Shown here: positions 7,785 to 29,132 of the stretch, piece after piece
Layout of the letters: every line of letters starts with the position of its first letter
Numbering within the stretch: position 1 is the first letter of the stretch
Source: Minisyncoccota bacterium
GTDB lineage: Bacteria > Patescibacteriota > Microgenomatia > UBA1400 > PJMF01
Assembly (NCBI GenBank): GCA_012515515.1
Contig: JAAYYE010000011.1
Coordinates: 1,723-65,722, forward strand
Length of the DNA stretch: 64,000 nt
Direction of reading: 5' to 3'
The notes under the pieces: generated by a model
The model's database searches: none
Told to the model about the DNA's origin: nothing
What the model saw: only the letters and a program-made list of their open reading frames with translations
Made by a program: the position numbers and the translations under genes

Positions 7785-7906
7785 ACCAGCTTTAGCAATT
7801 ACTCCAATATTGATATACTTCAGCTCGTTTGTATCGAGAAAATTATTGTGGATAGCTTATGGGAAAAACAAAATTTGCCATTATTGCTTTTGCCTATCAA
7901 ACCAGC

Positions 7907-8849: not shown

Positions 8850-8879
8850 AATTCATTAGTCATTAGATTTTTAAGTTCA

Positions 8880-8916
8880 CCCCTCTCGAGGCTAAATTTG
8901 CCAAGAGAGGGGTTTT
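8880..8916 (+). terminator. Rho-independent terminator (CCCCTCTC ... GAGAGGGG + TTTT)
   Basis: 8-bp GC-rich stem with a 17-nt loop, followed by a T run. Confidence 0.55.
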
Positions 8917-9004
8917 ACTATTCTGCCCAAATTGTTTTCCACACTCTAACGAGCAAATAAAGGTATAATCAGCATTGATATTAATTGTTAATGAAGAGCT
9001 TTCA

Positions 9005-9637
9005 ATGAATAAAAATAATAATAACCCTGCCACTTTAGCGTCTCAAGATCTACTCAACGCAACGCTTCAAGCGCTTCAAGCAAAAAACATTCAGCCTACT
9101 GTGGTGAAAACTGCTGCCGAGGCTTTGGAAAAAATTAAAGGCTTAATTCCTGCAGGCAAGTCGGTCATGAATGGTTCCTCTATAACGCTTAAGCAAATTG
9201 GCTTTACAGATTTACTAAAATCTGGCAAGCACCCTTGGAATAATCTACATGCAGCAATTTTGGCTGAAAAGGACGCCGCTAAACAAGCTGAGCTCAGAAA
9301 ACAATCTGTTTTATCAGACTTTTATCTTGGCAGTGTCCACGCTCTCACCAAAGATGCTGAATTTATTATCGCTTCTAATTCTGGGAGTCAACTGCCGCAC
9401 GTTGTTTTTACTTCACCCAACCTCATCTTTGTGGTGAGTAGCAAAAAGATTGTCAATAGTTTAGATGACGCCATGAATCGTCTAGATAATGTAGTCGTGC
9501 CTCAGGAAAACGCCAGACTAATGGAAGTATATGGTGTTGAAACTTCTTTAAATCAAATTTTCATTTTTAAAAATGAAAATCCGATGATGAACAGAAATAT
9601 CCAGATGATTATTGTTGAAGAAGATTTAGGATTTTAA
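9005..9637 (+). CDS. LUD-domain protein (LutC/YkgG-like), putative
   Basis: The pattern LIPAGKSVMNGSSITLKQIGFTDLL ... ASNSGSQL resembles the LUD/DUF162 family. The start is taken at the internal Met (MNKNNNN). Confidence 0.45.
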   Translation: MNKNNNNPATLASQDLLNATLQALQAKNIQPTVVKTAAEALEKIKGLIPAGKSVMNGSSITLKQIGFTDLLKSGKHPWNNLHAAILAEKDAAKQAELRKQSVLSDFYLGSVHALTKDAEFIIASNSGSQLPHVVFTSPNLIFVVSSKKIVNSLDDAMNRLDNVVVPQENARLMEVYGVETSLNQIFIFKNENPMMNRNIQMIIVEEDLGF

Positions 9638-9821
9638 GTAATCATCGACCAACAAGTATTTTGACTAAGCTATAATTGTTTTATGAAAGTAACTCAGTAT
9701 CCAGATGTTAATGAAGTGTTGAGCTTGCTGTCCACTCAGCTCCAAGAAGTTGCTGGTAGCGAGCTTTAATAAACAAGTGTTTTGATAGGCAAAAGTAATT
9801 ATTTTCAATTAAAATAGCATT

Positions 9822-10460
9822 ATGTCAATCAAATTAATTGACTCAGCTGAAAGTCGGTCACCAATTCAAGAGATGCAACTATCTCAGCTCATGGCAGAAA
9901 CGCCGCAAGGAAACTTATATAGAAAAAGATTGTCTCCTTATAAAGCCGCCACTGTATTTCCTCAATTACATGAAAATGTTGAACAAATATTAACCGCAGT
10001 CGATCCACCTGCCAAAGAAAAACGCCGCATCTTAATGCGTAAATTAATTAGAAATGCCCCCAACAATTTCCCAATCATTGGCAAACCTAGTTCTTGTTTT
10101 GCCTTTCGTGATAAAGTTGGAAATATTTTTCTTGATTATTTGCTTGAAAGTGTAGACAAGGAAAGAGAAGGTATTACTTTACACACATTTTTACGAGAAC
10201 ATCCTTCATTAGCTCCAGCGTATCAATTAAAAAATCTATTTGCTAATTCAACTGAATCTTTAATGTCGGGTCACATTGCTGATATCACTCCAGAATACAG
10301 AACTAATGGACCAGCTCAAATTTTTTTAATTGACAAATTTTCTGCAAATTCAAAATTAACATCATTAGAAAAAGTGATGTTAAAAATAATCATCGGCAAC
10401 GGCATTGTTCCGATTGGTGGTGAAGGAGTATTAGTTGAGCCATTTAAACTAGCAGAATAA
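9822..10460 (+). CDS. Hypothetical protein
   Basis: Intact 212-aa ORF with no recognisable motif. Confidence 0.4.
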   Translation: MSIKLIDSAESRSPIQEMQLSQLMAETPQGNLYRKRLSPYKAATVFPQLHENVEQILTAVDPPAKEKRRILMRKLIRNAPNNFPIIGKPSSCFAFRDKVGNIFLDYLLESVDKEREGITLHTFLREHPSLAPAYQLKNLFANSTESLMSGHIADITPEYRTNGPAQIFLIDKFSANSKLTSLEKVMLKIIIGNGIVPIGGEGVLVEPFKLAE

Positions 10461-12786: not shown

Positions 12787-13962
12787 ATGAAAAGAGAGGA
12801 TGTTGTAATAGTTATTGTATTGGTGTTTTTGATGTCCTTGTTTATGGGTGTGCTTGACGCTTTTGCGCAAACCCCTGAGCAAGAGGATGTCAGTATCAGC
12901 GGTTTCCAGCTTGCTGGAGACCGTACCACGGAGTTGTTGACAACCCCGCTTTCTATTAAGCCGGGGGATTGTGGTGCGCTCCCTCCTCCCTCGTTTGAGG
13001 GAGTAAAGAGGAACCTCGAGCTTAACGAGGACTCAACAAAAATTCAGGTCTACTATGACTCAAACAAGGGCATGGTATGTGCCCAAGTTTGGGGTACCTG
13101 GCCTGGAACTGTCAACAATGACGGAGTGCAAGAGTTTGACTCCGTCATGCGGGTGTATAAGGGTTACAATCTATTGGAGGTTCAAGACGAACCTTTGATT
13201 AAAAGTAATCCATTTACAGGTGGAATTCCCTTCCACTTGTATTCATTTAAGCTCCCCAAGGGGGGTGGAGAGTATTATTTTTTGTTTGATTTTTACCAGC
13301 AACAATTGCTGGGAAAAGACCGCTTGGGGATGCCTCACCGTGACTGGTCAGGCACCTTTCGTAGCGGACCGCATAGGATATTTCTTCCTATCATCATCAA
13401 GCCGGTGCCACCAACACCGCCACCTCCTCCACCACCACCTCCTCCTCCTCCACCAACCGATTGTCCAAGTTGGACAATTGAAGCGGTTGCGCCGGGATTT
13501 AGCATTCCGGCGTTAACTTACGAGAAAGGGGGTAATCATTACCCCACCATTGGATACTTGTATTTTGGACAGACGATGTCTGTCAAAATCAAGAACAATG
13601 GTGTTGTGTCCAATCTCCCCACGGGTGGGGAGACCACCGTGTACGACGGAGCGGGTAACGTTGTGGCTGAATATGGCCGCAATGGAAACTTCAGTGTCGT
13701 CGGGGGTCAAGGTGTCTTTGGTGAAGATTTCTTCACCTTTGACTCCTCCTTCCTCTGGCAAGGGGGAAGCTGTCGTGCCTCATTCACGATTTGGGACCCC
13801 GAACCGGTCCTGAATCATTTGGAGGCAGAACTTGGCGTGAGTCGTGAAGAGGCTATTAGCCTTTTGAACGACTATTTTAACGAAATCGCCACAACCACTA
13901 CCACCACCACTACAACCCTAACTCAGGATGTCTGGGATTGGGTTGAAACTATCAGCAAGTGA
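12787..13962 (+). CDS. Secreted protein with poly-Pro and poly-Thr linkers
   Basis: Sec-type signal peptide (MKREDVVIVIVLVFLMSLFMGVLDAFAQ), a P14 tract and a T9 tract. GC-rich codons. Confidence 0.55.
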   Translation: MKREDVVIVIVLVFLMSLFMGVLDAFAQTPEQEDVSISGFQLAGDRTTELLTTPLSIKPGDCGALPPPSFEGVKRNLELNEDSTKIQVYYDSNKGMVCAQVWGTWPGTVNNDGVQEFDSVMRVYKGYNLLEVQDEPLIKSNPFTGGIPFHLYSFKLPKGGGEYYFLFDFYQQQLLGKDRLGMPHRDWSGTFRSGPHRIFLPIIIKPVPPTPPPPPPPPPPPPPTDCPSWTIEAVAPGFSIPALTYEKGGNHYPTIGYLYFGQTMSVKIKNNGVVSNLPTGGETTVYDGAGNVVAEYGRNGNFSVVGGQGVFGEDFFTFDSSFLWQGGSCRASFTIWDPEPVLNHLEAELGVSREEAISLLNDYFNEIATTTTTTTTTLTQDVWDWVETISK

Positions 13963-13970: not shown

Positions 13971-14013
13971 CCAGCTGCCCGCTTTTTAGCGGGCAGCTGG
14001 AAATCTTTTCTTT
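13971..14013 (+). terminator. Rho-independent terminator (CCAGCTGCCCGC-ttttta-GCGGGCAGCTGG + T-rich)
   Basis: Perfect 12-bp stem directly after the stop codon, followed by a T-rich tail. Confidence 0.65.
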
Positions 14014-14334: not shown

Positions 14335-14427
14335 AAACATTTTGTGGACTTAAATTGACCCAACCAAAAGAGGACTCATAATAATCTTTTTTTGGTTGGG
14401 TCAATAGAAAAAAGAAAGAAGGTAGAA

Positions 14428-15408
14428 ATGATACAGACTTTGTGGGAATCACTGTTGCAACTTTTGTCCAATATAATTTTATTTATTGGGCAACTGTTTA
14501 CTGTAGGGGGCAAAATGATTGCCCTCCCAGGTTTTCTCGGCCTGGCAATTGGACTAATACTATTCGCAATTGCTTACAAAAAAACCGAGCATCTTTTAGG
14601 ATCACTCCTCCTACTGGGAGGGGCAGGTCTGACAGTATTTATAATAGTGTCGTACCTACTCTGGCCTTTTTTGTTTAAAGGGTCAGAGAACAGCGTCACC
14701 AGCTGTTACAAGGCGGCTGGAACAAATATAGCAGCCGTGTCAATCTGTGACAGCATTTCTAGTGGTTTTGTTCCCCCATCAACAACACCTGGTGAGCAAA
14801 CACCAGTTGTTGTCGTTCCCCCTACTGATCCTGATGATCAGCAGGTAGTTAGAACGTTCAAGGCAAACGCCTTGGAAATTTTAATCCTGGGGTGGAATCT
14901 AAAACCACCTGGTACGACTAATTTAATCAATCCTGCGGATGTTCCGCAGGGCATTATGTTGTCTTTTGAGTGTGACAATCCAATTGCTACACGTCAAAAC
15001 GAGGTCTGGAAGGTTACCATTTCTGGCATCGTGCCAGGACTAGGGCAAAAATCCCTAGTAATAGAAACAAATGGCTACTTCGCCAGGGACGGCTTTAAAG
15101 CTAAACCTGGCACAAGTGTTGTTGGAACAGGAACTTGGGAGGAGGTTTGTCCAAGTTGCTATACCGATGTGGTGGTTACCCCACCACCTCAACCAACACC
15201 CACTCCAGCTCCCGCTCCAGCAACGACCCAGGTCGCCTTTCCAGAACTCATTTGTGGGTACTGGGGGTGGCTTTTGCAGTCTGGCAATGCGCTGGTGGTT
15301 CCAACCACTGGTGGGCAGCCAGACTTTGCCCACGCGGTGTCCCAAGCTGCAGCCGCAGCGGACATCGCTAAGAGGTGTCCCGGCGAAACCTTGCCGGCAC
15401 CTCCATAA
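14428..15408 (+). CDS. Membrane-anchored Pro/Thr/Ala-rich surface protein
   Basis: AAGG RBS before the ATG at 14428. Three N-terminal TM helices, then a Pro-rich region (PPPQPTPTPAPAPA). Very GC-rich 3' half. Confidence 0.5.
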   Translation: MIQTLWESLLQLLSNIILFIGQLFTVGGKMIALPGFLGLAIGLILFAIAYKKTEHLLGSLLLLGGAGLTVFIIVSYLLWPFLFKGSENSVTSCYKAAGTNIAAVSICDSISSGFVPPSTTPGEQTPVVVVPPTDPDDQQVVRTFKANALEILILGWNLKPPGTTNLINPADVPQGIMLSFECDNPIATRQNEVWKVTISGIVPGLGQKSLVIETNGYFARDGFKAKPGTSVVGTGTWEEVCPSCYTDVVVTPPPQPTPTPAPAPATTQVAFPELICGYWGWLLQSGNALVVPTTGGQPDFAHAVSQAAAAADIAKRCPGETLPAPP

Positions 15409-15440
15409 AAACCATGAAATGTTTGAAGACCCAACTTCTT

Positions 15441-15470
15441 CCCGGGGTCCGCCTTTGTGTGGACTCCGGG
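15441..15470 (+). other. Stem-loop (CCCGGGGTCC...GGACTCCGGG), possible weak terminator
   Basis: 10-bp stem with one mismatch and no clear T tract. Confidence 0.3.
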
Positions 15471-15563
15471 AACTAAGGAAAAATTAAAATTAATACTATT
15501 AATAATATTTTTATTGAATTATTGCTAATTGCTAATAATTTAAAAAAACAAAACAAGGAAAAA

Positions 15564-16355
15564 ATGGCAAGAAAAGAAATACCAGGATTTAACGCTCCTG
15601 CTCCTGATAGCGATCGTCCTCGATCAAGAAAAGAAAAAATACCAGGATTTAACACTCCTGCTGATGATAGCGATCGTCCTCGATCAAGAAAAGGAAGTTC
15701 GTTTTTAAAAAACATGCTTAATGCTCCAGGAGTCGGTGTTCCTGCTGATGATAGCGATCGTCCTCGATCAAGAAAAGGAAGTTCGTTTCTAAAAAATATT
15801 TCTAATATACCAAGCATTGGTGTTCCAAATCAAAAGTTGCTTGAAGAAGAGGCCAACAAAAAACAACAAGGAGCGCAGAAACGAGCACAGATAGAAGCAC
15901 TCCAACAAGATAAAAAAGATGCAACTAATCAAGCAAAACTTGGTGCAGTTACAACAGTGGTTGGCTTAGCTATTGAGGATCCTCTAATGGCTACTGAGGG
16001 ATTTATAAATACTGCGGCAGGTGTGACTAAGAGGAAAACAGCTAAAGAACGGATTAAATCGGTGAAAAAAAATCCCAGAGCAGCCAATAGCGTTGGCTCA
16101 AGAACTGAGGATGGTGGTCAATTTAGTGGTGTAATTAAAAAAGCAGCTTCAGCCATTTTCAGTAAGATTTTTAGCAAAAAAAGTAAACCTGCTGAGACAG
16201 AACAAGCAACTCAAACGCCACCAAACGCATCAAGCAAAAGTGAGAGAGCTTATACTCCACCAAACTACTCAGATGATGAGGATATCATCGAAGGAGAGTT
16301 TACCGTCGTTGACGATGGCAAGCCCAAACAATTAACCAATGGTAAAAAGAGCTAA
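15564..16355 (+). CDS. Hypothetical protein with N-terminal 3x tandem repeat IPGFN.PA.DSDRPRSRK(GSSFLKN), no signal peptide
   Basis: Coding tandem repeats span 15585-15800. The start is taken at MARKEIPG, which has an AAGGAAAAA RBS. Confidence 0.5.
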   Translation: MARKEIPGFNAPAPDSDRPRSRKEKIPGFNTPADDSDRPRSRKGSSFLKNMLNAPGVGVPADDSDRPRSRKGSSFLKNISNIPSIGVPNQKLLEEEANKKQQGAQKRAQIEALQQDKKDATNQAKLGAVTTVVGLAIEDPLMATEGFINTAAGVTKRKTAKERIKSVKKNPRAANSVGSRTEDGGQFSGVIKKAASAIFSKIFSKKSKPAETEQATQTPPNASSKSERAYTPPNYSDDEDIIEGEFTVVDDGKPKQLTNGKKS

Positions 16356-16384
16356 TTATATAAAAACACTTAAAGAAAAATATT

Positions 16385-18397
16385 ATGTCAAAGGAAAGAA
16401 GAGGTATTCCTGGAATAACTCATCCGCCAGATGAGACTGACAGACCTCAAACAAATTATTCACGACCCGAGCCTAAAGATCATGGACTTGGTCAATTGTT
16501 ACAAGCTCCAAAAGACATAATAGTCACAGGTTTGCGAGCTATAGCTGGCGCTCTTACTATATCTTTAGCAAGAACTTTAGGCATTAGAGACTCTGTGTCT
16601 CGAGCTGAAAAAGATTTAGCCATCTATGAATCACAACTTAATAAAAGAAAAGGGAATACTGAGAAATTACAGGAAAAAATAGATAAGACAAAAGCTTTAC
16701 TGACTGAATTGAATAAGGGAGTTGAGTTGAGCGAGGCAATTTTAAATATTCAAGAAGACTATAACGAGTTATTGGCAGATGATGAACATCTTTTGTCATT
16801 GTTAGCTAAAACAATTGGCAAGGAAGGTTTAGAAACTATTAAAGGAAGTTTTTTAACTAATCAAAAAACTCAAGTAGGAGTTAAGTCCGTTACTGATGAG
16901 GAAATTAAATTAGCCCAAGAATTTTTTGCTAGAGCTGATAATGATGAAGAAAGAAGTAGCTCACTTAAACAACACATTCAACAGTTAGCCGAAACTAATT
17001 TAATTGTTTTAGGTAAACAGTTGGTTAATTTAGCAAAAATTAAAGAAATTGATGAAATTAATCAAGAGACAAATTTTCCTATTAACTGGGTGTCTTGGGA
17101 CGAAGCCTTAGCAGCTTCGGTAATGGGAGCTACGGGTAGAACTCAAGAATCTCTTCGGGGTGGTTATGGAGTGAATATGAAAGCGGGTGGATTGAATGTT
17201 TCTGCAGGACAGGATATAAGCCAAATTGGTCCTATGGAACAAATTGTAGTTCATGCTGATATACCACAAAATATTGAAGCTGCTAGATCGGTGGCAAATG
17301 GTGAGGTGCCTCTCTTTAGATCAGCAATTATTAAAAGTTTATTTAGAAAAGCTATGGGTGACCTTTCACTATTGCCTGGAAGAATTGATATTAATAACAC
17401 TGGTAATAATAATACTAAGTCATACCCCGCTTTAGATGTTAATCGTCAAATGAACAATATTACTTTAGTTCGTAAGGCTGCAATAGAAATGCAAAAAATT
17501 TTAAAAGGTCTTGAACAAATTGACCTTGGCAAAGATGATGATCAAGCAACACAAAAAAGCAAATTAATTACTGTTGGAAGTAGGGGGGCTTTAGCAATAC
17601 CAAGATATCAAGTTATTGTTGATTTAATGGAGCAAATAAGTGCAACAGATCCAGGAATTATTGCTAATTTAAGTGAGCAATATCGTGTGCTAGAGGAAGT
17701 GGCTGATGAAGACTTAAACGATCAAAATTTGGATGGCGAAGCGGATTTGGCCGAAGAACAACAAGAGGAGCAGGAAGATCAAGCTGATGAAGATGAAGAT
17801 CAAAATATTAATCAAAAGGAGAGAGATTTAATTGAAGCAGTATTTCCTCAGGGAATTGATCAGCGGAATGCAAGGCGGATTATTAACCGTCCAAAAATTT
17901 ATTTTGACAACTTCACTAAACGCTTTGGTCTAATAACAGGTATAAGAACCATGGTGGCTGTCGCAAAAGAAGCTAGAAGGCTGGTTGATACACAAAAGAC
18001 TGATCAAAACGAGGGTGATTTAGTTGAAGCAGTATTTCCTCGGGGCATTGATCAGCGAACTGCAAGGCAAATTATTAAACATCCAAAAATTTATTTTGAC
18101 AACTTCACTAAACGCTTTGGTCTAATAACAGGTATAAGAACCATGGTGGCTGTCGCAAAAGAAGCTAGAAGGCTGGTTGATCAGGAAGACAGAAGGATAT
18201 TAGAAGAAGAAGCTTTAAAACTAGCTGGTTATTTTCACGGGATGAGTATTGAACAAGCCACAAACTTTATAGACAATCTCCAAGCTAATCGTGAGAAATT
18301 ACGTAGGATGTATGGCACAAAAAAGGGCAATAAAACTGCTGATCTAATTAAAGAATTTGCTAAAAAAATTCTTGGGCAAGTGGGTAATTTTAAATAA
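16385..18397 (+). CDS. Large acidic coiled-coil-rich hypothetical protein (670 aa) sharing the N-terminal IPG..P.DE.DRP motif
   Basis: Begins MSKERRGIPGITHPPDETDRPQ. Contains an acidic EEQQEEQEDQADEDEDQ block and a 64-aa internal tandem duplication. Confidence 0.55.
   Translation: MSKERRGIPGITHPPDETDRPQTNYSRPEPKDHGLGQLLQAPKDIIVTGLRAIAGALTISLARTLGIRDSVSRAEKDLAIYESQLNKRKGNTEKLQEKIDKTKALLTELNKGVELSEAILNIQEDYNELLADDEHLLSLLAKTIGKEGLETIKGSFLTNQKTQVGVKSVTDEEIKLAQEFFARADNDEERSSSLKQHIQQLAETNLIVLGKQLVNLAKIKEIDEINQETNFPINWVSWDEALAASVMGATGRTQESLRGGYGVNMKAGGLNVSAGQDISQIGPMEQIVVHADIPQNIEAARSVANGEVPLFRSAIIKSLFRKAMGDLSLLPGRIDINNTGNNNTKSYPALDVNRQMNNITLVRKAAIEMQKILKGLEQIDLGKDDDQATQKSKLITVGSRGALAIPRYQVIVDLMEQISATDPGIIANLSEQYRVLEEVADEDLNDQNLDGEADLAEEQQEEQEDQADEDEDQNINQKERDLIEAVFPQGIDQRNARRIINRPKIYFDNFTKRFGLITGIRTMVAVAKEARRLVDTQKTDQNEGDLVEAVFPRGIDQRTARQIIKHPKIYFDNFTKRFGLITGIRTMVAVAKEARRLVDQEDRRILEEEALKLAGYFHGMSIEQATNFIDNLQANREKLRRMYGTKKGNKTADLIKEFAKKILGQVGNFK
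17825..18181 (+). repeat. Intragenic tandem duplication, 192-bp period (2 copies, distal ~100 bp identical)
   Basis: Both copies encode DL[IV]EAVFP[QR]GIDQR.AR.II..PKIYFDNFTKRFGLITGIRTMVAVAKEARRLVD. Confidence 0.7.
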
Positions 18398-18595
18398 ATT
18401 AAAAGATGTCGTTATTACTAATTAGCTTGAGGATTTTTTGATATTAGCATCAATCTAATCCTCCGCTCTTTAACAAAGCAAACAAAAATAATGGACACTT
18501 AGTGATCCTAACAAGATAAATATAGCATTTGTTTTGTTTGGGTCACTAAGTAGTTGAGTCATTAAACTAAACAATCATAAACCAGGAGGTGGTTA

Positions 18596-20368
18596 GTGAA
18601 ACGCAAATTGTTTTACACCACCTTGCTGGTGGTGTTGTTGACCCTCACCATAATGGTGGGGCCAGTTTTAGCTGGCGAAACGTGGTTAAATACTCCAGTA
18701 GTTGGTTCCATTCGATGTGGAGCTGGCTTTGGAGAAAGAAACCCGCTCGGCGGGCAAGACTTCCACAATGCCGTTGATATGGCATGTGGAATGTATCGCG
18801 CACGGGTGCTGGCAGTAGCATCTGGCGAAGTCGTTTGGAACACTTATTGGCCGATAGGCAGTGCGCCAAACGTGGGTCACGGTATTACCGTGATTATCAA
18901 GCATCATGATGGGCTCTATACCTATAGCGCTCATCTGGATGAAGCCGCGGTGAAGGTAGGTCAACAAATCGACCAAGGATCGGTAATTGGCCATGTTGGG
19001 AATACTGGGTATGTTATTAGCACTCCAGGCAATCCCAATTACCATTTACACTTTGCCGTAAGGAATACTGGCCCAGATGATGGTGGTTGTTGGGATGCCA
19101 CTTGTTGGCTTAATCCCGACAATTTTTTGGGAAAAAGTCCGGAAATTGCCAATCCGGATCCAGGCACTCCAAACCCAGAACCCAATAAGTTTAATTTAAT
19201 CACAACAATTGATGAAGTTGTTGCGATTATTAAACACATTCCAAAGTTTAAAGATTGGGATGAAAAATGGGAGGGGATTAAAGGATATATTCCTTATATT
19301 CCCTGGGTCTTGGCCGGGTTAACCTTACTGGTTTTTCTTGGCCTCTTATGGCTAATAAAACCAGTGTTGAACTGGCTCGCGAAAACTCACTGGTGGCGAA
19401 AAAGATATCATAATGTCGAGCTGTTTTGCTTAGCGTTAGGTATCAAGCTCTTTGGCGAAGGTCTCTATTGGGCACAAATGGCCCAATTCGCTTTTGCTGC
19501 CTGGGGCTTTTACTTTTCGGAGCAAATAATTGAAAGGTCTTATCGCCATTTTAATTATGATCCAGATGTTAAAAAAGACGGCCCTGGCAAAAGAGAATGG
19601 CTAAGAAAAATTATTAACATTATGTTCAACATCGCGTTAATAATGTCAATCTTGGCCTATTCATGGGGATTTTTCCTCATGAACTCAGATTTCCAGGAGC
19701 TTGTTGATGTCTGGGGGTGGTTTGATGATCCAGACCAACCAGATCAACCAGACCCACCAAGCCCGCCAGATCCACCAAGCCCGCCAGATCCAACCCCAAA
19801 GCCTCCTAATATAATTATAGGTGGAGGGGTGAAAATCGTCTTTGATTGCAATTTTAATGCAATCAAGGCTGGATTGGGACCAGTGCAGGTAGGCTGCGAC
19901 GCCCATGGTTTGCCAAAGTTTTTGATCACTTGGTGGAATGGTCAAAAGTTTAATTTCCAAATTCCATTGGAAATTTGGATAGCAGCCCTGGAGGCGGGCA
20001 ATACCCCAGAGCAAGTTTTGGGGATTATTGCCATTGCCAGTTCCGAAAGCACCGGGTTTACCAATTACCAAACGGAAAACCCCTATGGTGCCCTAGGCGT
20101 TTGGCAATTTTTGCCTGCCACCTACACTGCCTGGGCGGAACCAGGCTATGAGAATCCTGCATACCGCACCAACATCCCCATTGCTGCAAAGGCAGTTGGG
20201 AACATGATGGAAGGTGGCATGAATGAGATTTATCTCATGGATCACAGCAATTTTGTCTCCTGTTTTATGGGAGGGAACGGTTGCTGGACCTGGAACCAAC
20301 ATTCCGCGCAAGCGGATTATGCCTACCGCATCCTTTTTGCTTTAAAGGTCGCGGCAGGTCTCAAATAA
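18596..20368 (+). CDS. Bifunctional cell-wall hydrolase: N-terminal M23 (LytM) peptidase + C-terminal lytic transglycosylase (SLT)-like domain, with membrane segments and a PD/PS-rich linker
   Basis: GTG start with an AGGAGG RBS, then a signal peptide. M23 motifs FHNAVD (HxxxD) and HLHF (HxH). The SLT-like region SSESTGF ... GALGVWQF has a catalytic Glu-Ser and a GLMQ-like box. Three to four hydrophobic helices lie between the domains. Confidence 0.65.
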   Translation: MKRKLFYTTLLVVLLTLTIMVGPVLAGETWLNTPVVGSIRCGAGFGERNPLGGQDFHNAVDMACGMYRARVLAVASGEVVWNTYWPIGSAPNVGHGITVIIKHHDGLYTYSAHLDEAAVKVGQQIDQGSVIGHVGNTGYVISTPGNPNYHLHFAVRNTGPDDGGCWDATCWLNPDNFLGKSPEIANPDPGTPNPEPNKFNLITTIDEVVAIIKHIPKFKDWDEKWEGIKGYIPYIPWVLAGLTLLVFLGLLWLIKPVLNWLAKTHWWRKRYHNVELFCLALGIKLFGEGLYWAQMAQFAFAAWGFYFSEQIIERSYRHFNYDPDVKKDGPGKREWLRKIINIMFNIALIMSILAYSWGFFLMNSDFQELVDVWGWFDDPDQPDQPDPPSPPDPPSPPDPTPKPPNIIIGGGVKIVFDCNFNAIKAGLGPVQVGCDAHGLPKFLITWWNGQKFNFQIPLEIWIAALEAGNTPEQVLGIIAIASSESTGFTNYQTENPYGALGVWQFLPATYTAWAEPGYENPAYRTNIPIAAKAVGNMMEGGMNEIYLMDHSNFVSCFMGGNGCWTWNQHSAQADYAYRILFALKVAAGLK

Positions 20369-20564: not shown

Positions 20565-22895
20565 ATGAAAATATCCTGCCCAAAAAAAACAATCTTTCTT
20601 GTAAGTGTTTTTGTAATTTTTTTATTGGTATTTTTTAGAAAAAATCCAAACTTTTTTGCCTTTTCAGACTCGACTAAAGGCAACTTTTATCTTAATCACC
20701 AGATGGTGAGGGCTAATGAGGACGAGTCTGATCCTTCTCCTGTCACAGTAGAATTAGATCCAGCGCCAAGCCTAATACATAATTTGACTCCTAGTTTTAG
20801 TGGCACAGCTACTACAACTAATGATTCATATATTGTTAGCGTAATGTACAGGATTGATGAAAATCCTCCAAAATATTGTTGGGCAAAAGATGAGGATTTT
20901 GATAGTGATTCTGAGGATTTCATTTGTCAAATTGATAGACCTTTAGCAAATGGGGAGCACACGATTTTTATTAAGGCTTGGGATGAGGATGAATCAGAAA
21001 GTGACCCTGAATTATCAAAAATTACTTTTACCATTAAAAATCCTAATCCCCCAGTCGCTGATTTTCCGCAAGTTGCTGGTGAAGTCTATGCCACTGCCGT
21101 GAGCGATGACGGCAAGACCTTATATATTGGTGGTGATTTTGAGAGTGTTGAAGATCCTGAAGGAACTCCAAAAGAGCGCCATAATTTAGCCGCTATTGAT
21201 TTAGAAACGATGTTGGTAACTGATTGGAATCCTTCAGATTGGTATTGGAGTGGTCCAGTTTATGACATTGAAATTGATGGAGGGTATGTCTTAATTGGTG
21301 GTAGTTTTTATTATAGTGTGGATGAAAATAATGTTAGTCAATTTGCTAAACTCCATCAAGAAACTGGCCTGATAGATGAAGCTTGCACGCCTAGGGTGCT
21401 GAGAACTGGAGATTTTCAGACATACACCATATATGATCTTAAGCTCACAAATGATTATATTTATCTTGGAGGAGACTTTGATGACATTGATGACACCAGA
21501 GTATATGGTCTCGCTAGACTTAATAGAGATACTTGTGCACTTGATACAACTTGGCTTCCTGAAGTAGGTGGCAGTGTGCAAACTATTGAAACAATGGGTG
21601 ACAGTGTTTTTATTGGTGGTGATTTTTGGGAAGTTAACGAATCAGAGCGCGAGGGATTTGCCAAAATTAGTGCCAGTACAGGCATTTTAGATAGTAATTG
21701 CATAAAAGAGTTTGATGACAACAATACAATTTATTCCATCAAAGCCGATAATAATTATCTATATGTGGGTGGTGAATTTGATCAAATTTATGATCCACCT
21801 TTAAATGCAACTTTTCAGCGCAATGGTTTAATTAGATTAAAAAATGATAATAGTTGTTTATTAGATCAGATTTGGGATCCCAATCCTCATTTTTATGATT
21901 TTGAAGATGATGATTGGTATCCTGGTGCTATTTACTCTATTAATCTTGATGAAACAGATAGTAGTATTTATGTTGGTGGTAGCTTTAGTAGTATTGGTGG
22001 TCAAAGTGGTAGTGAATTTGCTAAATTAGACATTGATACTGGTTTAGCAGACCTTAATTGGAACCCAGGAATTTGGGTGAAGGATGGAGGCGGAGGTTCA
22101 AATCCTGTTCCCAGCACCGTTCATTCATCAGTCATTACTGATAATTACTTAATTGTCGGAGGTGGTTTTGATCGAGTAGGAACTGAAGAAAGACACTCTT
22201 TGGCGGCTTTTCCCCATGAGAAAGCACTTGGTCCCACTCCAGAACCATCAACATCTTCTGCTGATAAAGCTAAAAAAGATCATCAAGACAAAACCGAAAC
22301 AGTGCAAATTCCCCACGCAGTTAAAAAACTTTTTGGCTTGATTGTGGCTAAACCGGTTAAAGACTCAAACACCAATGGCCAAGAAGTATTGAGTATTGTT
22401 TTTAAAGACACTTTAGATTTTGATGCTTATCTCTCGGTTAATCATACGCCGGTAGGCGATTTGCCAATGCTGAGAGAACAAAATAATCAAGCAAGCGCCA
22501 ATAATACAGCTGCTAATAAAGGTAATTTCCTAATTGCTGGTTGGCGGGGTCATCAATTAATGGGTTTTAAAGAAAATAAAACCATTTATTGGCAAATAGG
22601 CAATATTCAACAAATGTTTTATAAAGCCTATCCAGTTGCTGGAAAAGAAGCGCCCGTAATTATTCCAGAAATTCAACATAAATCTTCAATTATTGCGCTC
22701 AAATACAATAAGAGTCAGCTAATTCCACCTGGAGAGCCCAATACTAAATTTAGCGAATTAAAACTCAAACTTGCCCACTCAATGGATGGTGTCAACTGGC
22801 GGGTTATGCCCAATTCAGTTGTTGATCCGATCAATAACACTGTGGCCGTTATTGATAAATTGGGTGGTTACTACGTGATTGTTGCTAGTTATTAG
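20565..22895 (+). CDS. Delta-60-repeat (beta-propeller-like) surface protein, N-terminally membrane-anchored
   Basis: Reiterated motif of about 55-60 aa: LY[IV]GG.F ... FAKL/GLARL ... G.LD..W.P (for example GLARLNRDTCALDTTW and EFAKLDIDTGLADLNWNP). One N-terminal TM helix. Confidence 0.6.
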   Translation: MKISCPKKTIFLVSVFVIFLLVFFRKNPNFFAFSDSTKGNFYLNHQMVRANEDESDPSPVTVELDPAPSLIHNLTPSFSGTATTTNDSYIVSVMYRIDENPPKYCWAKDEDFDSDSEDFICQIDRPLANGEHTIFIKAWDEDESESDPELSKITFTIKNPNPPVADFPQVAGEVYATAVSDDGKTLYIGGDFESVEDPEGTPKERHNLAAIDLETMLVTDWNPSDWYWSGPVYDIEIDGGYVLIGGSFYYSVDENNVSQFAKLHQETGLIDEACTPRVLRTGDFQTYTIYDLKLTNDYIYLGGDFDDIDDTRVYGLARLNRDTCALDTTWLPEVGGSVQTIETMGDSVFIGGDFWEVNESEREGFAKISASTGILDSNCIKEFDDNNTIYSIKADNNYLYVGGEFDQIYDPPLNATFQRNGLIRLKNDNSCLLDQIWDPNPHFYDFEDDDWYPGAIYSINLDETDSSIYVGGSFSSIGGQSGSEFAKLDIDTGLADLNWNPGIWVKDGGGGSNPVPSTVHSSVITDNYLIVGGGFDRVGTEERHSLAAFPHEKALGPTPEPSTSSADKAKKDHQDKTETVQIPHAVKKLFGLIVAKPVKDSNTNGQEVLSIVFKDTLDFDAYLSVNHTPVGDLPMLREQNNQASANNTAANKGNFLIAGWRGHQLMGFKENKTIYWQIGNIQQMFYKAYPVAGKEAPVIIPEIQHKSSIIALKYNKSQLIPPGEPNTKFSELKLKLAHSMDGVNWRVMPNSVVDPINNTVAVIDKLGGYYVIVASY

Positions 22896-23816: not shown

Positions 23817-25160
23817 TTGCTGTATCTAGCTATGTTAAAAAAGAAATCTAGCTTAATTATTGCGATTGTTTTTTCTTTACTTGTTGGCGTGGGTGGTGGC
23901 TTATTGCTTAGCCACTACCAAGATCGTTTGCCGCTAATTGCTAATTTAATTAAGCAAGACTCAAAGCAAAATGAAGACAATGTTTATTTAGCTTTTTTAC
24001 AGGAGCTTCGCCAAATTATCTTAGAAAATTATTGGGACACCATTAATGAGACACAGTTTGTTAAATTACATGTTTTAGTGCTTGAACAAATAACGGGAAC
24101 AACTTTTGGTGATGCCATAGAAAATTTCACAGATTTAGATCAGCAAATTCTTGAATTACTTAAAGACTATCCCGAAGAATTGAAGCAAGAATTTACTGTG
24201 CAGTTGGCCGATTTAGTTTTAACTAATCTAGAGCCTTTTGGTCGCAGTCGACTTTATTCTCAACAATTAGAAGATGATTTAGCTGAACGGGTCAACAATA
24301 TCGATCCAGAAGCTGATCATTATCAGTCTTTAAATGTAGCTAAAGACGCTACCAGCGAGGAAATTAGTCAGGCTTTTGTAGAGCAAGAAGCTATTTTAGA
24401 AAAAGAGAATACTCCAGAAGCAGCAGCTCAATTAGCAGAAATTCGCCAAGCTTATCAGACCTTAGCCAATGAAGAAAATCGCCAGCGTTATGATGAGGCA
24501 GGGGTTAATCCTAGTATGGAATGGCGTTTGCTTAATTCTGCAGTTTTTTATGTGCATATTAAACAATTTACACCAAACACCGTTCAAGAACTTTTAGAAG
24601 TCAGCCAAAAAGTTGATGATCGAGGAGAAGAGTTGGACTCATTAATTCTAGATTTGCGAGGCAATATTGGTGGAGCTATAGACGGTTTGCCCTACTTTTT
24701 GGGGCCATTTATTGGTCAAAACCAATACGCCTATCAATTTGTTCAACAGGGAAAAATTACCGATTATAAAACTCGTAGCAGCTATTTACCCTCTCTGGCT
24801 CGTTATAAAAAAGTGGCTATCTTAATCGATGAGCAAGTACAATCAACAGCCGAAGTGATGGCCAGTGTACTGAAAAAATACAACGTGGGGGTATTAATTG
24901 GCACTAATACTATGGGTTGGGGCACAGTCGAACGAGTTTTTCCTCTTGAAAAGCAAATTAGCGAGAGTGAGCGCTATTCAGTTTTTTTGGTTCATCATCT
25001 AACTTTGCGTGAAGATGGCGTAATTATTGAGGGCAATGGGGTGGCGCCGGTTATCAACACTCAAGATGTGGCTTGGCAACGGCGTTTAGCTAGTTATTTT
25101 GGTGATTCAGCCATTGTGTCAGCGGTGACAGAGCAATTTGCTTTCCCAGAAGCAAATTAA
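23817..25160 (+). CDS. S41-family (C-terminal processing) peptidase-like protein with N-terminal TM anchor and degenerate J-like segment
   Basis: LDLRGNIGG matches the S41 DLRxNxGG box, and QSTAEVMA looks like the Ser-containing segment. The J-domain-like stretch (DHYQSLNVAKDATSEEISQAF...RQAYQTL) lacks HPD. Confidence 0.5.
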   Translation: MLYLAMLKKKSSLIIAIVFSLLVGVGGGLLLSHYQDRLPLIANLIKQDSKQNEDNVYLAFLQELRQIILENYWDTINETQFVKLHVLVLEQITGTTFGDAIENFTDLDQQILELLKDYPEELKQEFTVQLADLVLTNLEPFGRSRLYSQQLEDDLAERVNNIDPEADHYQSLNVAKDATSEEISQAFVEQEAILEKENTPEAAAQLAEIRQAYQTLANEENRQRYDEAGVNPSMEWRLLNSAVFYVHIKQFTPNTVQELLEVSQKVDDRGEELDSLILDLRGNIGGAIDGLPYFLGPFIGQNQYAYQFVQQGKITDYKTRSSYLPSLARYKKVAILIDEQVQSTAEVMASVLKKYNVGVLIGTNTMGWGTVERVFPLEKQISESERYSVFLVHHLTLREDGVIIEGNGVAPVINTQDVAWQRRLASYFGDSAIVSAVTEQFAFPEAN

Positions 25161-25240: not shown

Positions 25241-26905
25241 TTGTTGAAAAACCTGCCTTTAATGCTCAGGATATTTAATTTACTTTACCAGAGAAAAACA
25301 AAATTCATTTCCCAAGAGGTTTATTTTTGTGAATATGCCGGCAGCGTTTATCTGATTGTTCAAGATAAAGAGACGGGCAAAATCATTAAATCAGCCAAAA
25401 GTAAAGATGGTTTTTTATTTCGTAAGGTGAGAATTAAGGAAGCTGCAGTTAAGCAATACCCCCCCTTTAAAGAAAAAAGACGCAAATTTATTCAAGATCG
25501 CTATGTCGGACATTTAGCTCCATCCAGTGAATTCATTGATAAATCAAAGATCGCTGTGCAAAATGCTTTTAGCACTCCCGATGGCGTCTTGTTGTTTTAT
25601 CATTATCACAATCATCAATCTTTTCAGGTGGGCGTGGCAGGTTTTACCCATGGCAATAATCCGCAGTTAATCTGGCGCCACCACCAGCCAGTTTGGGAAA
25701 TGTATGATCAGATCGCGGATAAAAAAATTGAATTTATAGATTTAATTGAAATTCGGGGTCAGTTAATTGCCTATTGGCTAGTAGAAAATGAAGCGGTTTG
25801 GGCAACTGTTTATCCTAATTATCGCATTACTGAGCAAATTGAAATTGTTAAAGGTTCACAGCTTGAGCGACCCAGTGGCAATCCCCTAATCAGTCCAAAT
25901 CCTAGCCACGATTGGGAAGCTTTTACCACTTTCAACCCCGGTGCCCTCTACGACGCCGGCAAAGTTCACTTGCTTTATCGTGCTCAAGGTTATGACTATG
26001 TGTCTTCGATTGGTTATGCCAGTAGCACTGATGGTGTGCATATTGAGCAGCAATTGCAAAATCCAGTTTTTATTCCCACTCAACCCTTTGAAATTCCGCT
26101 CCAACCAGGCAAAGTCAACATGAATTTTATGTCAGCTGGTTATGGTGGTTGTGAAGATCCGCGCATCACTAAAATTGATGACCGGATTTATATGACTTAT
26201 GTAGCTTTTAATGGTTATTCAGAACCTAGAATTGCCATGAGCTCGATTGCTGTGAAAGATTTTCTAGACCACAATTGGTTGTGGACTCATCCCGTTTTGA
26301 TTTCTCAGCCTGGAGTGGTAACCAAAAGCGCTTGCATTTTACCGGAAAAAATTGATGGTAAATATGTGATTTTTCATCGAGTTTTTCCTGATATTTTAAT
26401 TGATTATCGCGATGATTTAGATTTTAGCGACGGACAATATTTAACTGCGCAAAAGAAAATCAGTCCTCGTTCGGCATTATGGTGGGATAGTCGCAAAATT
26501 GGGGTGGGCGCTCCACCGCTAAAAACTCGAGATGGTTGGTTATTAATTTATCAATCAATCGATGACAAAGCTGGCTACCCCTATAAAGTTGGAGCCATGT
26601 TGCTCGACTTAGCAGATCCAAGCAAAGTTTTGCATCGTTCTCGTCAGCCAATTCTTGAACCACAAGAGTGGTATGACAATGATGGTTTTAAAGCAGGAGT
26701 AGTTTATCCCTGTGGAGCAGTAATTATTGATAATACCCTGTTTGTTTATTATGGTGGAGCTGATTCACGAGTCTGTGTGGCGACTGCCAACTTAGCAGAG
26801 TTTTTAGATCAGCTCAAAAAAGAAGGCGATGCTCGAGTTGAACCGACTGTAATTGCCAAACTAGATCAAGAAAATTTAGCCAAAAAAGGGTTTTTTCATC
26901 GGTAA
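25241..26905 (+). CDS. GH130-family-like glycosidase/phosphorylase (PH1107-related)
   Basis: GCEDPRITKIDDRIYMTYVAFNG motif. Paralogous to the next gene. The track start is TTG at 25241, and the first ATG is at 25262. Confidence 0.6.
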   Translation: MLKNLPLMLRIFNLLYQRKTKFISQEVYFCEYAGSVYLIVQDKETGKIIKSAKSKDGFLFRKVRIKEAAVKQYPPFKEKRRKFIQDRYVGHLAPSSEFIDKSKIAVQNAFSTPDGVLLFYHYHNHQSFQVGVAGFTHGNNPQLIWRHHQPVWEMYDQIADKKIEFIDLIEIRGQLIAYWLVENEAVWATVYPNYRITEQIEIVKGSQLERPSGNPLISPNPSHDWEAFTTFNPGALYDAGKVHLLYRAQGYDYVSSIGYASSTDGVHIEQQLQNPVFIPTQPFEIPLQPGKVNMNFMSAGYGGCEDPRITKIDDRIYMTYVAFNGYSEPRIAMSSIAVKDFLDHNWLWTHPVLISQPGVVTKSACILPEKIDGKYVIFHRVFPDILIDYRDDLDFSDGQYLTAQKKISPRSALWWDSRKIGVGAPPLKTRDGWLLIYQSIDDKAGYPYKVGAMLLDLADPSKVLHRSRQPILEPQEWYDNDGFKAGVVYPCGAVIIDNTLFVYYGGADSRVCVATANLAEFLDQLKKEGDARVEPTVIAKLDQENLAKKGFFHR

Positions 26906-26969
26906 AAATTATTCAATTATGCGCATTAAAATAATTGCGCACATCAAAAGAGCTTTCTAAAAGGTAATT

Positions 26970-28922
26970 ATGAAGCAAGATCAGCAACAAATACAATTTA
27001 AAAGACATCCAAAAAATCCACTTTTTTCTCCTCTTAGCAATAAGCTCACAAATCAAGAATGGCAAGCCAAAGCGGCTTTTAATCCTAGCCTAATTAAAGA
27101 AACAGCAGATAGTTATCACATGTTATATCGGGCCGTGTCTTTAGAAAAAGAGCATGCTGGTCAGTGGATGAATTTATCTAGCATTGCTTATGCAGAAAGT
27201 CGCAACGGGCTAGATTTTGAGCACTCACGCCAGTTAATTGTTCCAGAATATGATTGGGAAAAATTTGGTTGTGAGGATCCGCGAGTGACCTTTATAAATG
27301 GTCAGTATTATATTTTTTACACGGCGCTTGCCGATTATCCACACAGCGCCGATGGCATTCGCGTGGCAGTGGCTATTAGTGATGATTTAAGAACTATTAA
27401 AGAGAAACATTTGGTGACGCATTTTAACGCCAAAGCGATGGCCCTTTTTCCAGAAAAAATTAATGGTCAATATGTAGCAGTTTTAACACCCAACACCGAT
27501 CAGCCACCATCAATGATTGCTGTAGCTAGATTTGACGAGCTAGAAGATATTTGGTCTCCAGGATATTGGGAAAAATGGTATCAATGTGTGGGGCGCCACC
27601 AAATTAATTTAGAGCGCATCGACAGCGATCAAATTGAAGTGGGCGCAGTCCCAATCAAAACGAAGGATGGCTGGTTATTAATATATGCTCATATTCAAAA
27701 TTATCCCACCGAAAACAAAAGAATATTCGGGATTGAGGCTGCTCTAGTAGATTTAGCAGATCCACGAACAATAATTGCTAGAACCAAAGGGCCACTGCTC
27801 ACACCAGCAGCCGACTATGAAGGCGACGGCATGGTACCCAATGTTATTTTTCCCTCATCAGCTTTAATTGAAAATGATAAATTGCGTTTATATTATGGAG
27901 CCGCCGATACCCATTGTGCTGCTGCAGATATTTCTTTAGCAGAGCTGATTAAAGACATGAAAGCCAATCCCTTTAAAGAAACTTATCACTTAGTTAAATA
28001 TCGACGCAATCCAATTTTAAGCCCGCGTAGTGAGAACTTTTGGGAAGCAAATTCAGTTTTTAACCCAGCAGCAGTGCATGTTGGAGATAAATATTACTTG
28101 GTGTATCGTGCTCAATCTCCAGATAATACCTCAACATTGGGTTTAGCAGAAAGCGACGATGGTTTTAATTTTAAACGCTATCACGAGCCAATTTATGTGC
28201 CACGCAAAGCCTTTGAACAAAAAGCTGAACCTGGCAGATTATCTGGCTGTGAAGATCCGCGCATTACTCGCATGGGCGATGAATTTCTGATGTTTTATAC
28301 TGCCTATGATGGTATTAATCCACCCAGAGTGGCACTGAGCTCGATTGCTGTCAGTGATTTTGTTAATCATAATTGGCAGTGGTCAGAGCCGATAGTTATT
28401 TCTTCACCAGAAATCGATAATAAAAATAGTTGTTTGTTCCCTGAAAAAGTCCGCGGTCGCTATGTCATTTTACATCGTATGGCTGGCAAAGAAATTGCCA
28501 TCGATTACCTTGACGATCTCAGTCAACTGCAAAACGAAGGCGTTTGGTTGGAAAAAGAACAATCAATTTCTCCGATTACAGAACACTGGGACGGTCTTAA
28601 AATTGGTATTGCTGGCCCCCCTTTACTAGTGGATCAAGGCTGGCTGTTGCTTTATCACGGTGTGTCAGATATCGATCATCATTACCGAGTTGGTTTTATG
28701 CTTTTGGATAGAGATGAGCCTGGAAAAGTTTTATATCGCTCACCTTATCCAATTTTACGACCCACCGAACCCTTTGAGCGCATTGGTGATGTGGACAATG
28801 TTGTTTTCCCCTGTGGAGCAGTGATTGTTGATGGCACCTTGTTTGTTTATTACGGTGGAGCAGACAAAGTAGTCTGTGTGGCCACAGCCGATCTCAGCGA
28901 ATTATTAGCCCAAATTAAATAA
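26970..28922 (+). CDS. Tandem two-domain GH130-family-like glycosidase/phosphorylase
   Basis: Two copies of the family box (FGCEDPRVTFINGQYYIFYTAL and SGCEDPRITRMGDEFLMFYTAYDG). The C-terminal 45 aa nearly match the C-terminus of the previous gene. Confidence 0.65.
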   Translation: MKQDQQQIQFKRHPKNPLFSPLSNKLTNQEWQAKAAFNPSLIKETADSYHMLYRAVSLEKEHAGQWMNLSSIAYAESRNGLDFEHSRQLIVPEYDWEKFGCEDPRVTFINGQYYIFYTALADYPHSADGIRVAVAISDDLRTIKEKHLVTHFNAKAMALFPEKINGQYVAVLTPNTDQPPSMIAVARFDELEDIWSPGYWEKWYQCVGRHQINLERIDSDQIEVGAVPIKTKDGWLLIYAHIQNYPTENKRIFGIEAALVDLADPRTIIARTKGPLLTPAADYEGDGMVPNVIFPSSALIENDKLRLYYGAADTHCAAADISLAELIKDMKANPFKETYHLVKYRRNPILSPRSENFWEANSVFNPAAVHVGDKYYLVYRAQSPDNTSTLGLAESDDGFNFKRYHEPIYVPRKAFEQKAEPGRLSGCEDPRITRMGDEFLMFYTAYDGINPPRVALSSIAVSDFVNHNWQWSEPIVISSPEIDNKNSCLFPEKVRGRYVILHRMAGKEIAIDYLDDLSQLQNEGVWLEKEQSISPITEHWDGLKIGIAGPPLLVDQGWLLLYHGVSDIDHHYRVGFMLLDRDEPGKVLYRSPYPILRPTEPFERIGDVDNVVFPCGAVIVDGTLFVYYGGADKVVCVATADLSELLAQIK

Positions 28923-29055: not shown

Positions 29056-29132
29056 AAGGGCAAACACTCGTTGATTATGTGTTAATTAATTGGTCTGTTG
29101 CAACACGACGAGTAGTACAAAAGGTATCTATT

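Follow-up and report, generated by a model that had tools for sequence, protein, structure and literature searches.

A predicted self-anchored wall hydrolase with M23 and SLT-like heads, encoded with three lineage-specific partner genes in a Patescibacteria genome

A stretch of 64,000 nucleotides from a Minisyncoccota (Patescibacteria) bacterium (assembly GCA_012515515.1, contig JAAYYE010000011.1, positions 1,723 to 65,722 of the forward strand; hereafter the window, whose numbering is used throughout) carries at 18596-20368 a gene for a 590 amino acid protein in which an M23 peptidase domain and a soluble lytic transglycosylase (SLT)-like domain are predicted to flank a four-helix membrane module. 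Pairing of M23 and SLT domains is already known; this particular layout and its three partner genes are rare and undescribed. We read the protein (the hydrolase) as a bifunctional, self-anchored autolysin that would remodel the wall of the cell producing it together with the products of its partner genes, and place the probability of this overall reading at about 0.6. The architecture and the enzyme classes can be stated with considerable confidence; the self-wall, partner-dependent role is finely balanced. An earlier note on this DNA had described this fusion as suited to punching holes for a trans-envelope apparatus or to attacking another cell's wall: its M23 and SLT-fold heads, the membrane helices between them and, by prediction, their outward topology are supported; service to a known kind of apparatus and attack on a host are not.

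The open reading frame (ORF) begins with a GTG codon preceded, 6 nucleotides ahead, by the sequence AGGAGG and is uninterrupted; the identical 590 amino acid gene has also been called in an independent ENA assembly of the same organism. Both domains thus lie, as the earlier note had it, on a single polypeptide encoded by one intact ORF with a good ribosome-binding site. That note had looked to split or frameshifted genes in relatives as a sign that the fusion is not genuine: a single uninterrupted ORF is kept in all eight full-length homologues (43-86% identity) and in 2 GTDB species, and no split or frameshifted form was seen among them. The motifs that it named are likewise all there, namely FHNAVD (H57, D61), HLH (H150, H152), SSES (E484, S485) and GVWQF (501-505), as is the linker between both catalytic halves, DDPDQPDQPDPPSPPDPPSPPDPTPKPP, at amino acids (aa) 378-405. 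The gene and its parts are these (TM, transmembrane segment; K/R, lysine or arginine):

18596..20368, plus strand: whole gene including the stop codon, a single ORF for the 590-aa M23 - 4TM - SLT-like hydrolase
18585..18590, plus strand: ribosome-binding site AGGAGG, read directly from the sequence
18596..18676, plus strand: predicted signal peptide, aa 1-27 (MKRK, then a hydrophobic core, with presumed cleavage between VLAG and ETW), from Kyte-Doolittle hydropathy
18683..19135, plus strand: M23 metalloendopeptidase domain, aa 30-180, from Pfam PF01551, PDB matches and invariant columns
19136..19291, plus strand: Pro-rich spacer, aa 181-199, and conserved juxtamembrane segment, aa 200-232, probably an amphipathic helix; alignment, predicted external
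19292..19681, plus strand: four-segment membrane module, aa 233-362, from hydropathy and alignment (TM1 233-255; K/R-rich loop A 256-274; TM2/TM3 hairpin 275-312; loop B 313-338; TM4 339-362)
19724..19831, plus strand: acidic Pro-rich spacer, aa 377-412, from alignment and DNA repeats
19832..19960, plus strand: small beta-subdomain of the close family only, aa 413-455, in which C418 and C434 are invariant
19961..20365, plus strand: GH23/SLT-type lysozyme-fold domain (the model covered aa 441-590), from profile, AlphaFold2 (AF2) model, Foldseek and conservation

The protein is predicted to be exported, with a Kyte-Doolittle peak of 2.28 at aa 9-27 and three K/R at the N-terminus. Membership of its N-terminal head in the M23 family (PF01551, LytM/lysostaphin type) is borne out by profile score and residue motifs alike. 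The Pfam Peptidase_M23 profile matches aa 56-159 with 68.1 bits (cut-off 28.7; E 8e-19), solved M23 structures in the PDB match the N-terminal half down to E 7e-7, and an alignment of 10 sequences, extending down to 32% identity, shows no variation at H57 and D61 (HxxxD), H113, or H150 and H152 (HxH). These five residues are the zinc-binding or catalytic positions of LytM-type enzymes. Two cysteines of the domain, C41 and C64, are also conserved. A useful point of reference is PrgK, the cell-wall hydrolase of the DELTA-class type IV secretion system (T4SS) of the Enterococcus faecalis plasmid pCF10, in which the LytM domain is degenerate and metal-free and the domain predicted as SLT is actually a muramidase (PMC11323569). 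As the five residues are invariant here, unlike in the degenerate LytM domain of PrgK, an active endopeptidase is apparently the reasonable reading of the M23 head.

The C-terminal head is more divergent. Scored as a whole, the protein falls under the cut-offs of the lysozyme-clan Pfam families (18.5 against 21.3 bits for SLT, 22.1 against 28.2 for Phage_lysozyme2), and the isolated domain lies just at that of Pfam SLT (PF01464; 21.4 and 22.2 bits against 21.3). An exhaustive HMMER search with aa 200-590 through 1.84 billion representative proteins (E 1e-3 or better) returned 66 clusters, from which a 34-sequence alignment of the helical SLT-like domain was built. The significant or near-significant matches of the resulting profile in the PDB are nearly all lytic transglycosylases, the best being phiKZ gp144 (E 4e-5) and T7 gp16 (E 2e-4), and others including 8rhe (a LysM-containing transglycosylase chain), Slt70, MltC, MltE and SltB. 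The SES motif of the family (E484) aligns with Glu-Ser at position 115 of gp144 and at position 37 of T7 gp16, where E115 and E37 are presumably the catalytic residues. Among the 34 domain relatives, 26 match Pfam SLT itself (best 7e-10), and so do 37 of the 64 relatives taken at full length (best 8e-19).

An AF2 model built on the same 34 sequences has a pLDDT (predicted local distance difference test) of 97.7 and a pTM (predicted template modelling score) of 0.92. Its best 50 Foldseek matches in the PDB are all of the GH23 fold, with probabilities up to 0.99 and query-normalised template modelling scores up to 0.59; they comprise gp144, the lytic transglycosylase 5o1j/6fpn, Slt70, MltE, MltF and Cj0843 and also a GH23 chitinase, Rpf and invertebrate lysozymes. 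In the viral structure library BFVD the matches are to LT_GEWL, SLT, phage tail lysozyme and PRD1 transglycosylase, and over the PDB and BFVD together the E-values are 0.01 or higher. A first AF2 model (aa 405-590, on an 8-sequence alignment) had a pLDDT of 81.5 with the GALGVWQF loop disordered, and was superseded by the model on the deeper alignment; Foldseek returned nothing meaningful for it (globins on top, lysozyme-fold matches only to a template modelling score of 0.40), and a profile of the 8 close C-terminal sequences gave only noise against the PDB. The earlier note had named a lack of SLT-fold similarity in profile searches as the finding that would undo the assignment, and that similarity is found both by the family profile and by AF2 with Foldseek.

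Residues conserved over 71 domain sequences include E484 (99%), S485 (86%), G501 (100%), Q504 (97%) and F505 (99%), and no second acidic residue is conserved in this set. The motif residues are the putative catalytic pair E484-S485, G501xxQ504F505, W566-N567 and Q572, together with the invariant cysteines C556 and C563. The subfamily bears a signature of its own: its N-terminal part has a beta-hairpin with YWNG, its C-terminal part the block F-x-G...WN-x-H-x-x-QA-x-YVWRLW. Family-1 lytic transglycosylases have an AYNxG motif. This motif is not found in the 71-sequence alignment, where F557-x-G...W566-N567-x-H...Q572-A573 stands in its place; as judged from sequence and model, the domain is therefore a divergent GH23/SLT lysozyme-fold subfamily rather than a canonical family-1 member. 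A single conserved glutamate fits a lytic transglycosylase without proving one, and given that the predicted SLT domain of PrgK proved to be a muramidase, the product may be either a 1,6-anhydro sugar, as from a true lytic transglycosylase, or a reducing sugar, as from a muramidase. In the close family only, the SLT-like domain is preceded by the 43-residue beta-subdomain with its two invariant cysteines.

Between the heads the earlier note had counted three to four hydrophobic segments, and there are four: two strong ones (aa 235-253 and the charge-free 339-362) and two weaker ones at about 275-312 that are clearly hydrophobic in homologues of 43-50% identity. We judged topology by hydropathy and charge bias, using a script of our own. 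Loop A has 3-9 K/R against 0-1 aspartate or glutamate in 11 of 11 family members, loop B contains a near-invariant (W/Y)RHFNYDP together with 4-8 lysines or arginines, and the spacer that follows TM4 is acidic. By the positive-inside rule, the chain would run out, TM1, in, TM2/3 hairpin, in, TM4, out. Both heads would face outward whether or not the middle pair spans the membrane, since the helix count is even either way, and the six conserved cysteines (41, 64, 418, 434, 556, 563) are confined to the two predicted external parts, as expected of disulfide-stabilised exported domains. All three lines agree with an outward orientation of both domains, which the earlier note had put forward as a point to check. 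The acidic spacer is encoded by tandem DNA repeats of 9 and 18 nucleotides (19730-19792) and varies in length among homologues. The membrane module has no match in Pfam or the PDB and is present in only about 6-7 representative clusters of the 1.84 billion proteins searched. A Lipocone/VanZ identity for it was considered and rejected, there being no VanZ-type Pfam match in the hydrolase; the Lipocone paper deals with a different Patescibacteria operon (PMC12419801).

The hydrolase does not stand alone on the chromosome. It comes last in one four-gene layout that recurs at five loci, namely the window and the loci designated L001, L067, L066 and L065:

Window: gene A 338 aa, gene B 277 aa, gene C 670 aa, hydrolase 590 aa; partner-gene stretch 14392-18397
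L001: gene A 334 aa, gene B 125 aa, gene C 519 aa, hydrolase 635 aa; partner-gene stretch 6800-9888
L067: gene A 338 aa, gene B 134 aa, gene C 518 aa, hydrolase 622 aa; partner-gene stretch 2-3129
L066: gene A 362 aa, gene B 233 aa, gene C 480 aa, hydrolase 652 aa; partner-gene stretch 6402-9815
L065: gene A 243 aa, gene B 189 aa, gene C 560 aa, hydrolase 773 aa; partner-gene stretch 3984-7346

In the window, the partners and the element that precedes them are as follows:

13971..14000, plus strand: intrinsic-terminator-like hairpin of 13 pairs, 10 of them G-C, closing the upstream gene
14392..15408, plus strand: partner A (w338), polytopic membrane protein whose external domain contains Cys; kept beside the hydrolase
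15522..16355, plus strand: partner B (w277), disordered, with three IPGF..P..DSDRPRSRK repeats and a C-terminal IIEGEF
16385..18397, plus strand: partner C (w670), large and coiled-coil-rich, with an N-terminal GIPGITHP..DETDRP

Homology of the partners covers the first four loci: in BLASTP, w338 finds its counterparts with E 1e-51 (L067), 7e-47 (L001) and 5e-10 (L066), and w670 finds partners at other loci with E 7e-62, 3e-59 and 4e-8. The fifth locus, L065, is linked by layout and short motifs only (w338 shares a motif with the 243-aa protein L065_243); its partners were missed by profiles built from families A, B and C. The 14 homologues of w670 are all unnamed, and w338, w277 and w670, as well as the next gene upstream, w391, have no match in Pfam, NCBIfam, the PHROGs or PDB sequences. 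The three partners are specific to this Patescibacteria (Minisyncoccota) lineage. The product of a gene neighbouring the hydrolase is 100% identical to a protein of a 'Candidatus Pacebacteria bacterium', whose lineage is today placed in Minisyncoccota. Two of them are connected by a short motif, IPG(I/F)xxPxx(D/E)(S/T)xRP, which occurs three times in w277 (15577-15826, the copies being encoded by tandem DNA repeats of 60 and 84 nucleotides) and once at the N-terminus of w670 (16385-16470), is also present in the L001 homologues, and looks like a docking peptide. The small partner protein B ends in (I/V)EGEF. Promoter-like sites at 14230 and 14355 lie after the terminator and ahead of w338, and the interval from w338 to the hydrolase has no comparable terminator (at most 9 pairs, 6 of them G-C); the hairpin at 13971-14000 thus likely marks the start of a w338-to-hydrolase unit. 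Within w670, a separate feature is an internal tandem duplication at 17811-18181 (192 nucleotides or 64 aa, 93% identical, DLIEAVFP.GIDQR.AR.II..PKIYFDNFTKRFGLITGIRTMVAVAKEARRLVD), which appears to be recent, as the homologues are about 60 aa shorter.

How rare the arrangement is depends on which part of it is considered. In a collection of 5.8 billion proteins, 12 match the hydrolase and 8 of these have the same full architecture at 43-86% identity; the full-length gene is found in only 2 of 185,579 species-representative genomes (one labelled Candidatus Paceibacterota), and the exact layout in about 6 clusters among the 1.84 billion representative proteins. The SLT-like subfamily is broader, with about 66 clusters at 50% identity, and Pfam M23 is matched by 34 of 64 other proteins that have the SLT-like domain. 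Many of these relatives have signal peptide, M23, hydrophobic segments and SLT-like domain in the same order, but their membrane segments are unrelated to the module; soluble members, in which the SLT-like domain precedes M23, also occur. In two sister clusters (P0013 and P0014) the membrane module and SLT-like domain are kept and the N-terminal head lacks any M23 histidine, and Pfam VanW is matched by 4 of 64 subfamily proteins. On these grounds, the constant unit appears to be the membrane module with the SLT-like domain, and the second head appears to be exchangeable. The earlier note's description of the architecture as uncommon therefore holds for the exact layout but not for the M23 and SLT pairing, which is known from PrgK and phi29 gp13 and from the 34 subfamily proteins just mentioned.

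What the data show is the identity of the domains, their conserved catalytic residues, the lysozyme fold, the single ORF, the conserved gene cluster and its rarity. On this basis we propose a working model, which infers how the hydrolase lies in the membrane, what its heads cut, that its target is the wall of the producer and how it is regulated. Export by way of the N-terminal signal peptide would place the M23 zinc endopeptidase on the outer face of the membrane, with peptide stems or cross-links as its substrates. Four membrane crossings of the chain would follow, from out to in, through the K/R-rich loop, the short hairpin and the cytoplasmic loop with (W/Y)RHFNYDP, and from in to out again. 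Beyond TM4, the acidic Pro-rich spacer would carry the disulfide-type beta-subdomain and the GH23/SLT-type domain, which would cut glycan strands through E484. Spacers of about 20-36 residues would keep both heads tethered to one membrane patch and no more than roughly 10 nm from it. From there they would act on the wall of the producing cell at its inner face, opening it locally by removal of both kinds of bond. As the cytoplasmic loops are conserved and the partner genes obligatory, the enzyme may be positioned or gated from inside the cell: the partners would act with the hydrolase and probably control it by way of the membrane module and these loops. The purpose could be wall growth, cell division or separation, or the insertion of an envelope structure formed by the partners.

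A more elaborate version of this model, which we offer as a speculation and consider rather unlikely in its full form, is that w338, w277, w670 and the hydrolase constitute a new Patescibacteria-specific envelope complex. The motif-bearing partners, which lack signal peptides, would dock from the cytoplasm on the (W/Y)RHFNYDP loop and switch both wall enzymes through the four-helix module acting as a transducer, as an ATPase-free counterpart of FtsEX-EnvC-type control that might serve these ultra-small cells in division or separation, or in the opening of the wall at a site of host contact. Were this correct, a complex specific to the Patescibacteria would switch two wall-cutting enzymes across the membrane without an ATPase.

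Several points weigh against the autolysin reading. The activity of both heads is a prediction, and multi-domain hydrolases need not use every domain, as the M23-like and CHAP domains of PrgK are inactive regulators (PMC11323569). The Pfam SLT score of this single sequence is borderline, and the Foldseek E-values in the PDB are weak (0.06-1), though the matches are uniform. Topology rests on hydropathy and charge bias from our own script, not on a trained predictor, and the window protein itself shows weak hydrophobicity at TM2 and TM3. The non-M23 head of P0013 and P0014 means that dual chemistry is not obligatory for the module. Finally, because the partners have no recognisable function, the biological process served is a guess.

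Four other explanations have to be set beside it. The role that PrgK plays in pCF10, that of a membrane-anchored hydrolase with LytM, SLT and CHAP domains that is essential for conjugation, raises the idea that the present protein is a dedicated hole-puncher for a known trans-envelope machine (a Gram-positive-type T4SS or conjugation system, type IV pili or competence), and a conserved cluster with membrane and coiled-coil proteins would suit such a role. In the stretch that takes in about 10 kb on the upstream and about 20 kb on the downstream side, however, there is no T4SS, pilin, PilB/PilT, secretin, relaxase or other secretion or competence family, and the sole P-loop protein in that stretch is an ordinary ABC exporter 20 kb away. 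Membership of a T4SS cluster was rejected, VirB4-, VirD4-, VirB6- and VirB8-like families being absent from window positions 8235-41927 and from 5 related loci. Around the cluster lie genes of an ordinary chromosomal kind (NUDIX, a formate/nitrite transporter, GH130, an S41 peptidase, a SpaA-type surface protein with sortase, a P-type ATPase; rpsB, tsf and frr are among those in relatives), nothing suggests a mobile element, the partners match no family in Pfam, NCBIfam, the PHROGs or the PDB, and the layout is unlike that of PrgK, with its one N-terminal helix and its domains all in tandem. We thus regard such a role as improbable, and the earlier note's holes for a trans-envelope apparatus find no apparatus of known type to serve in the stretch covered. 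As no known machine is encoded nearby, a trans-envelope hole is possible only if the partners themselves form the apparatus. Improbable to the same degree is the reading that the protein attacks host or prey walls in an episymbiotic or predatory lifestyle. Many Patescibacteria (Minisyncoccota), the group to which the organism belongs, are epibionts, and pairs of M23 and lysozyme-fold domains are typical of phage and bacteriocin-type lysins; but four helices would fix this protein in its own membrane, and spacers of about 20-36 residues would give it a reach that meets the producer's own wall first. Conservation of the cytoplasmic loops points to control from within the cell, and neither the sequence nor its neighbours show an obvious processing site, a domain for toxin delivery or an immunity gene, for which no dedicated search was made. 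The tethering thus disfavours the attack on another cell's wall that the earlier note had raised, tight contact between epibiont and host being the remaining case.

A phage origin, as a prophage or virion-associated lysin stranded in the chromosome or as what is left there of a tape-measure or tail protein, was rejected and is highly improbable. It is prompted by the best PDB and PHROG matches, which include phage proteins for both heads (an internal virion protein and endolysins for M23, phiKZ gp144 and T7 gp16 for SLT), yet the context is not that of a phage: none of the four genes directly upstream, w391 to w670, has a significant PHROG match, and only the non-conserved downstream gene w776 matches one, of unknown function. 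A tblastn search with the TM module and the SLT part found nothing in 50,697 phage genomes, there are no relatives on IMG/VR viral contigs, synteny with housekeeping genes is kept in distant relatives, and a signal peptide with a four-helix module is not the layout of a virion protein. The last alternative is that the hydrolase is not truly bifunctional, only one head being catalytic and the other regulatory or binding, as in PrgK, with its degenerate LytM domain, or in EnvC/NlpD. The PrgK precedent speaks for this, and so do P0013 and P0014, where the N-terminal head is not M23 and the rest is conserved. It is nonetheless unlikely, as the five M23 residues and the SLT Glu-Ser pair are invariant in the window protein and in 8 of 10 other close relatives, a degree of conservation unlike that of known degenerate LytM domains.

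The genes around the cluster have features of their own. Upstream, w391 (12787-13962) encodes a secreted protein that contains a stretch of poly-proline, ends in a poly-threonine tail and has no family match; a homologue lies near the L001 operon (26% identity, E 4e-18), there on the opposite strand. Directly downstream of the hydrolase, w776 (20565-22895; 776 aa) has DUF5122/Rax2-type beta-propeller repeats, matches PHROG 5490 (function not assigned) at E 9e-35 and is conserved in close relatives only, outside the wider operon. The gene at 23817-25160 encodes an unusual fusion of a DnaJ J-domain (aa 167-226) and an S41 tail-specific/Ctp-type peptidase (aa 244-413) that is kept in the close relatives L003 and L004, and 25241-28922 holds two adjoining genes of GH130 (the beta-1,4-mannooligosaccharide phosphorylase family), the second with two GH130 stretches. 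At 29079-37308, a 2537-aa surface protein of SpaA-type, SdrD-B and DUF7507 repeats is followed directly by an overlapping sortase gene and is, by its predicted domains, a giant sortase-anchored adhesin or pilus-like protein. Giant surface proteins of this kind are typical of epibiotic Patescibacteria.

Patescibacteria, also known as the Candidate Phyla Radiation (CPR), lack many canonical proteins of cell division and wall remodelling, and to our knowledge their growth, division and attachment to hosts are poorly understood. The hydrolase and its three lineage-specific partners are a testable candidate for part of this missing wall machinery. The chemistry is familiar and current understanding is not overturned; the main value lies in the entry that it offers to an uncharacterised operon. 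A defined SLT-like subfamily, more than half of it fused to M23 and often across membrane segments, could in addition aid annotation.

Among known systems, FtsEX-EnvC, PcsB and RipC resemble the present case in coupling a wall hydrolase outside the cell to a membrane module with cytoplasmic parts and coiled-coil partners. The likeness is one of analogy only: no sequence similarity was found, the cluster is without an ABC ATPase or FtsX-like permease, and the module is here part of the hydrolase itself. With the family-1 lytic transglycosylases of GH23 (Slt70, MltC/E, phiKZ gp144, T7 gp16; PF01464) the SLT-like domain shares the lysozyme-like fold, the Glu-Ser at the end of a helix and G-x-x-Q-(F/I); it differs from them in its YWNG hairpin and in having a C-terminal block of its own instead of AYNxG.

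Both bond types are also addressed within one chain by the phi29 tail-knob enzyme gp13 (PDB 3CSQ), which has a lysozyme-like and an M23 domain (PMC9662197). In gp13 a glycan-cleaving lysozyme fold is joined to M23 just as in the hydrolase; gp13, like phage tape-measure and internal proteins with SLT and/or M23 domains, is, however, a soluble, phage-encoded virion component without membrane helices, whereas the hydrolase is predicted to be embedded in the membrane. The domain order of gp13, as Xiang et al. are said to have described it in 2008, is the reverse of that of the hydrolase.

It is PrgK that offers the most extensive set of parallels and differences. PrgK has a cytoplasmic N-terminus and one helix followed by LytM, SLT and CHAP in tandem, whereas here the heads flank a four-helix module; PrgK is encoded in a T4SS operon, whereas here there are no T4SS genes and no CHAP match, and the M23 residues are intact. 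Like PrgK, the hydrolase is predicted to be a single membrane-anchored polypeptide that holds an M23/LytM-type and an SLT-type domain outside a monoderm membrane, and as PrgK is encoded alongside a protein of its system to which it binds, so the hydrolase is encoded together with partners of its own.

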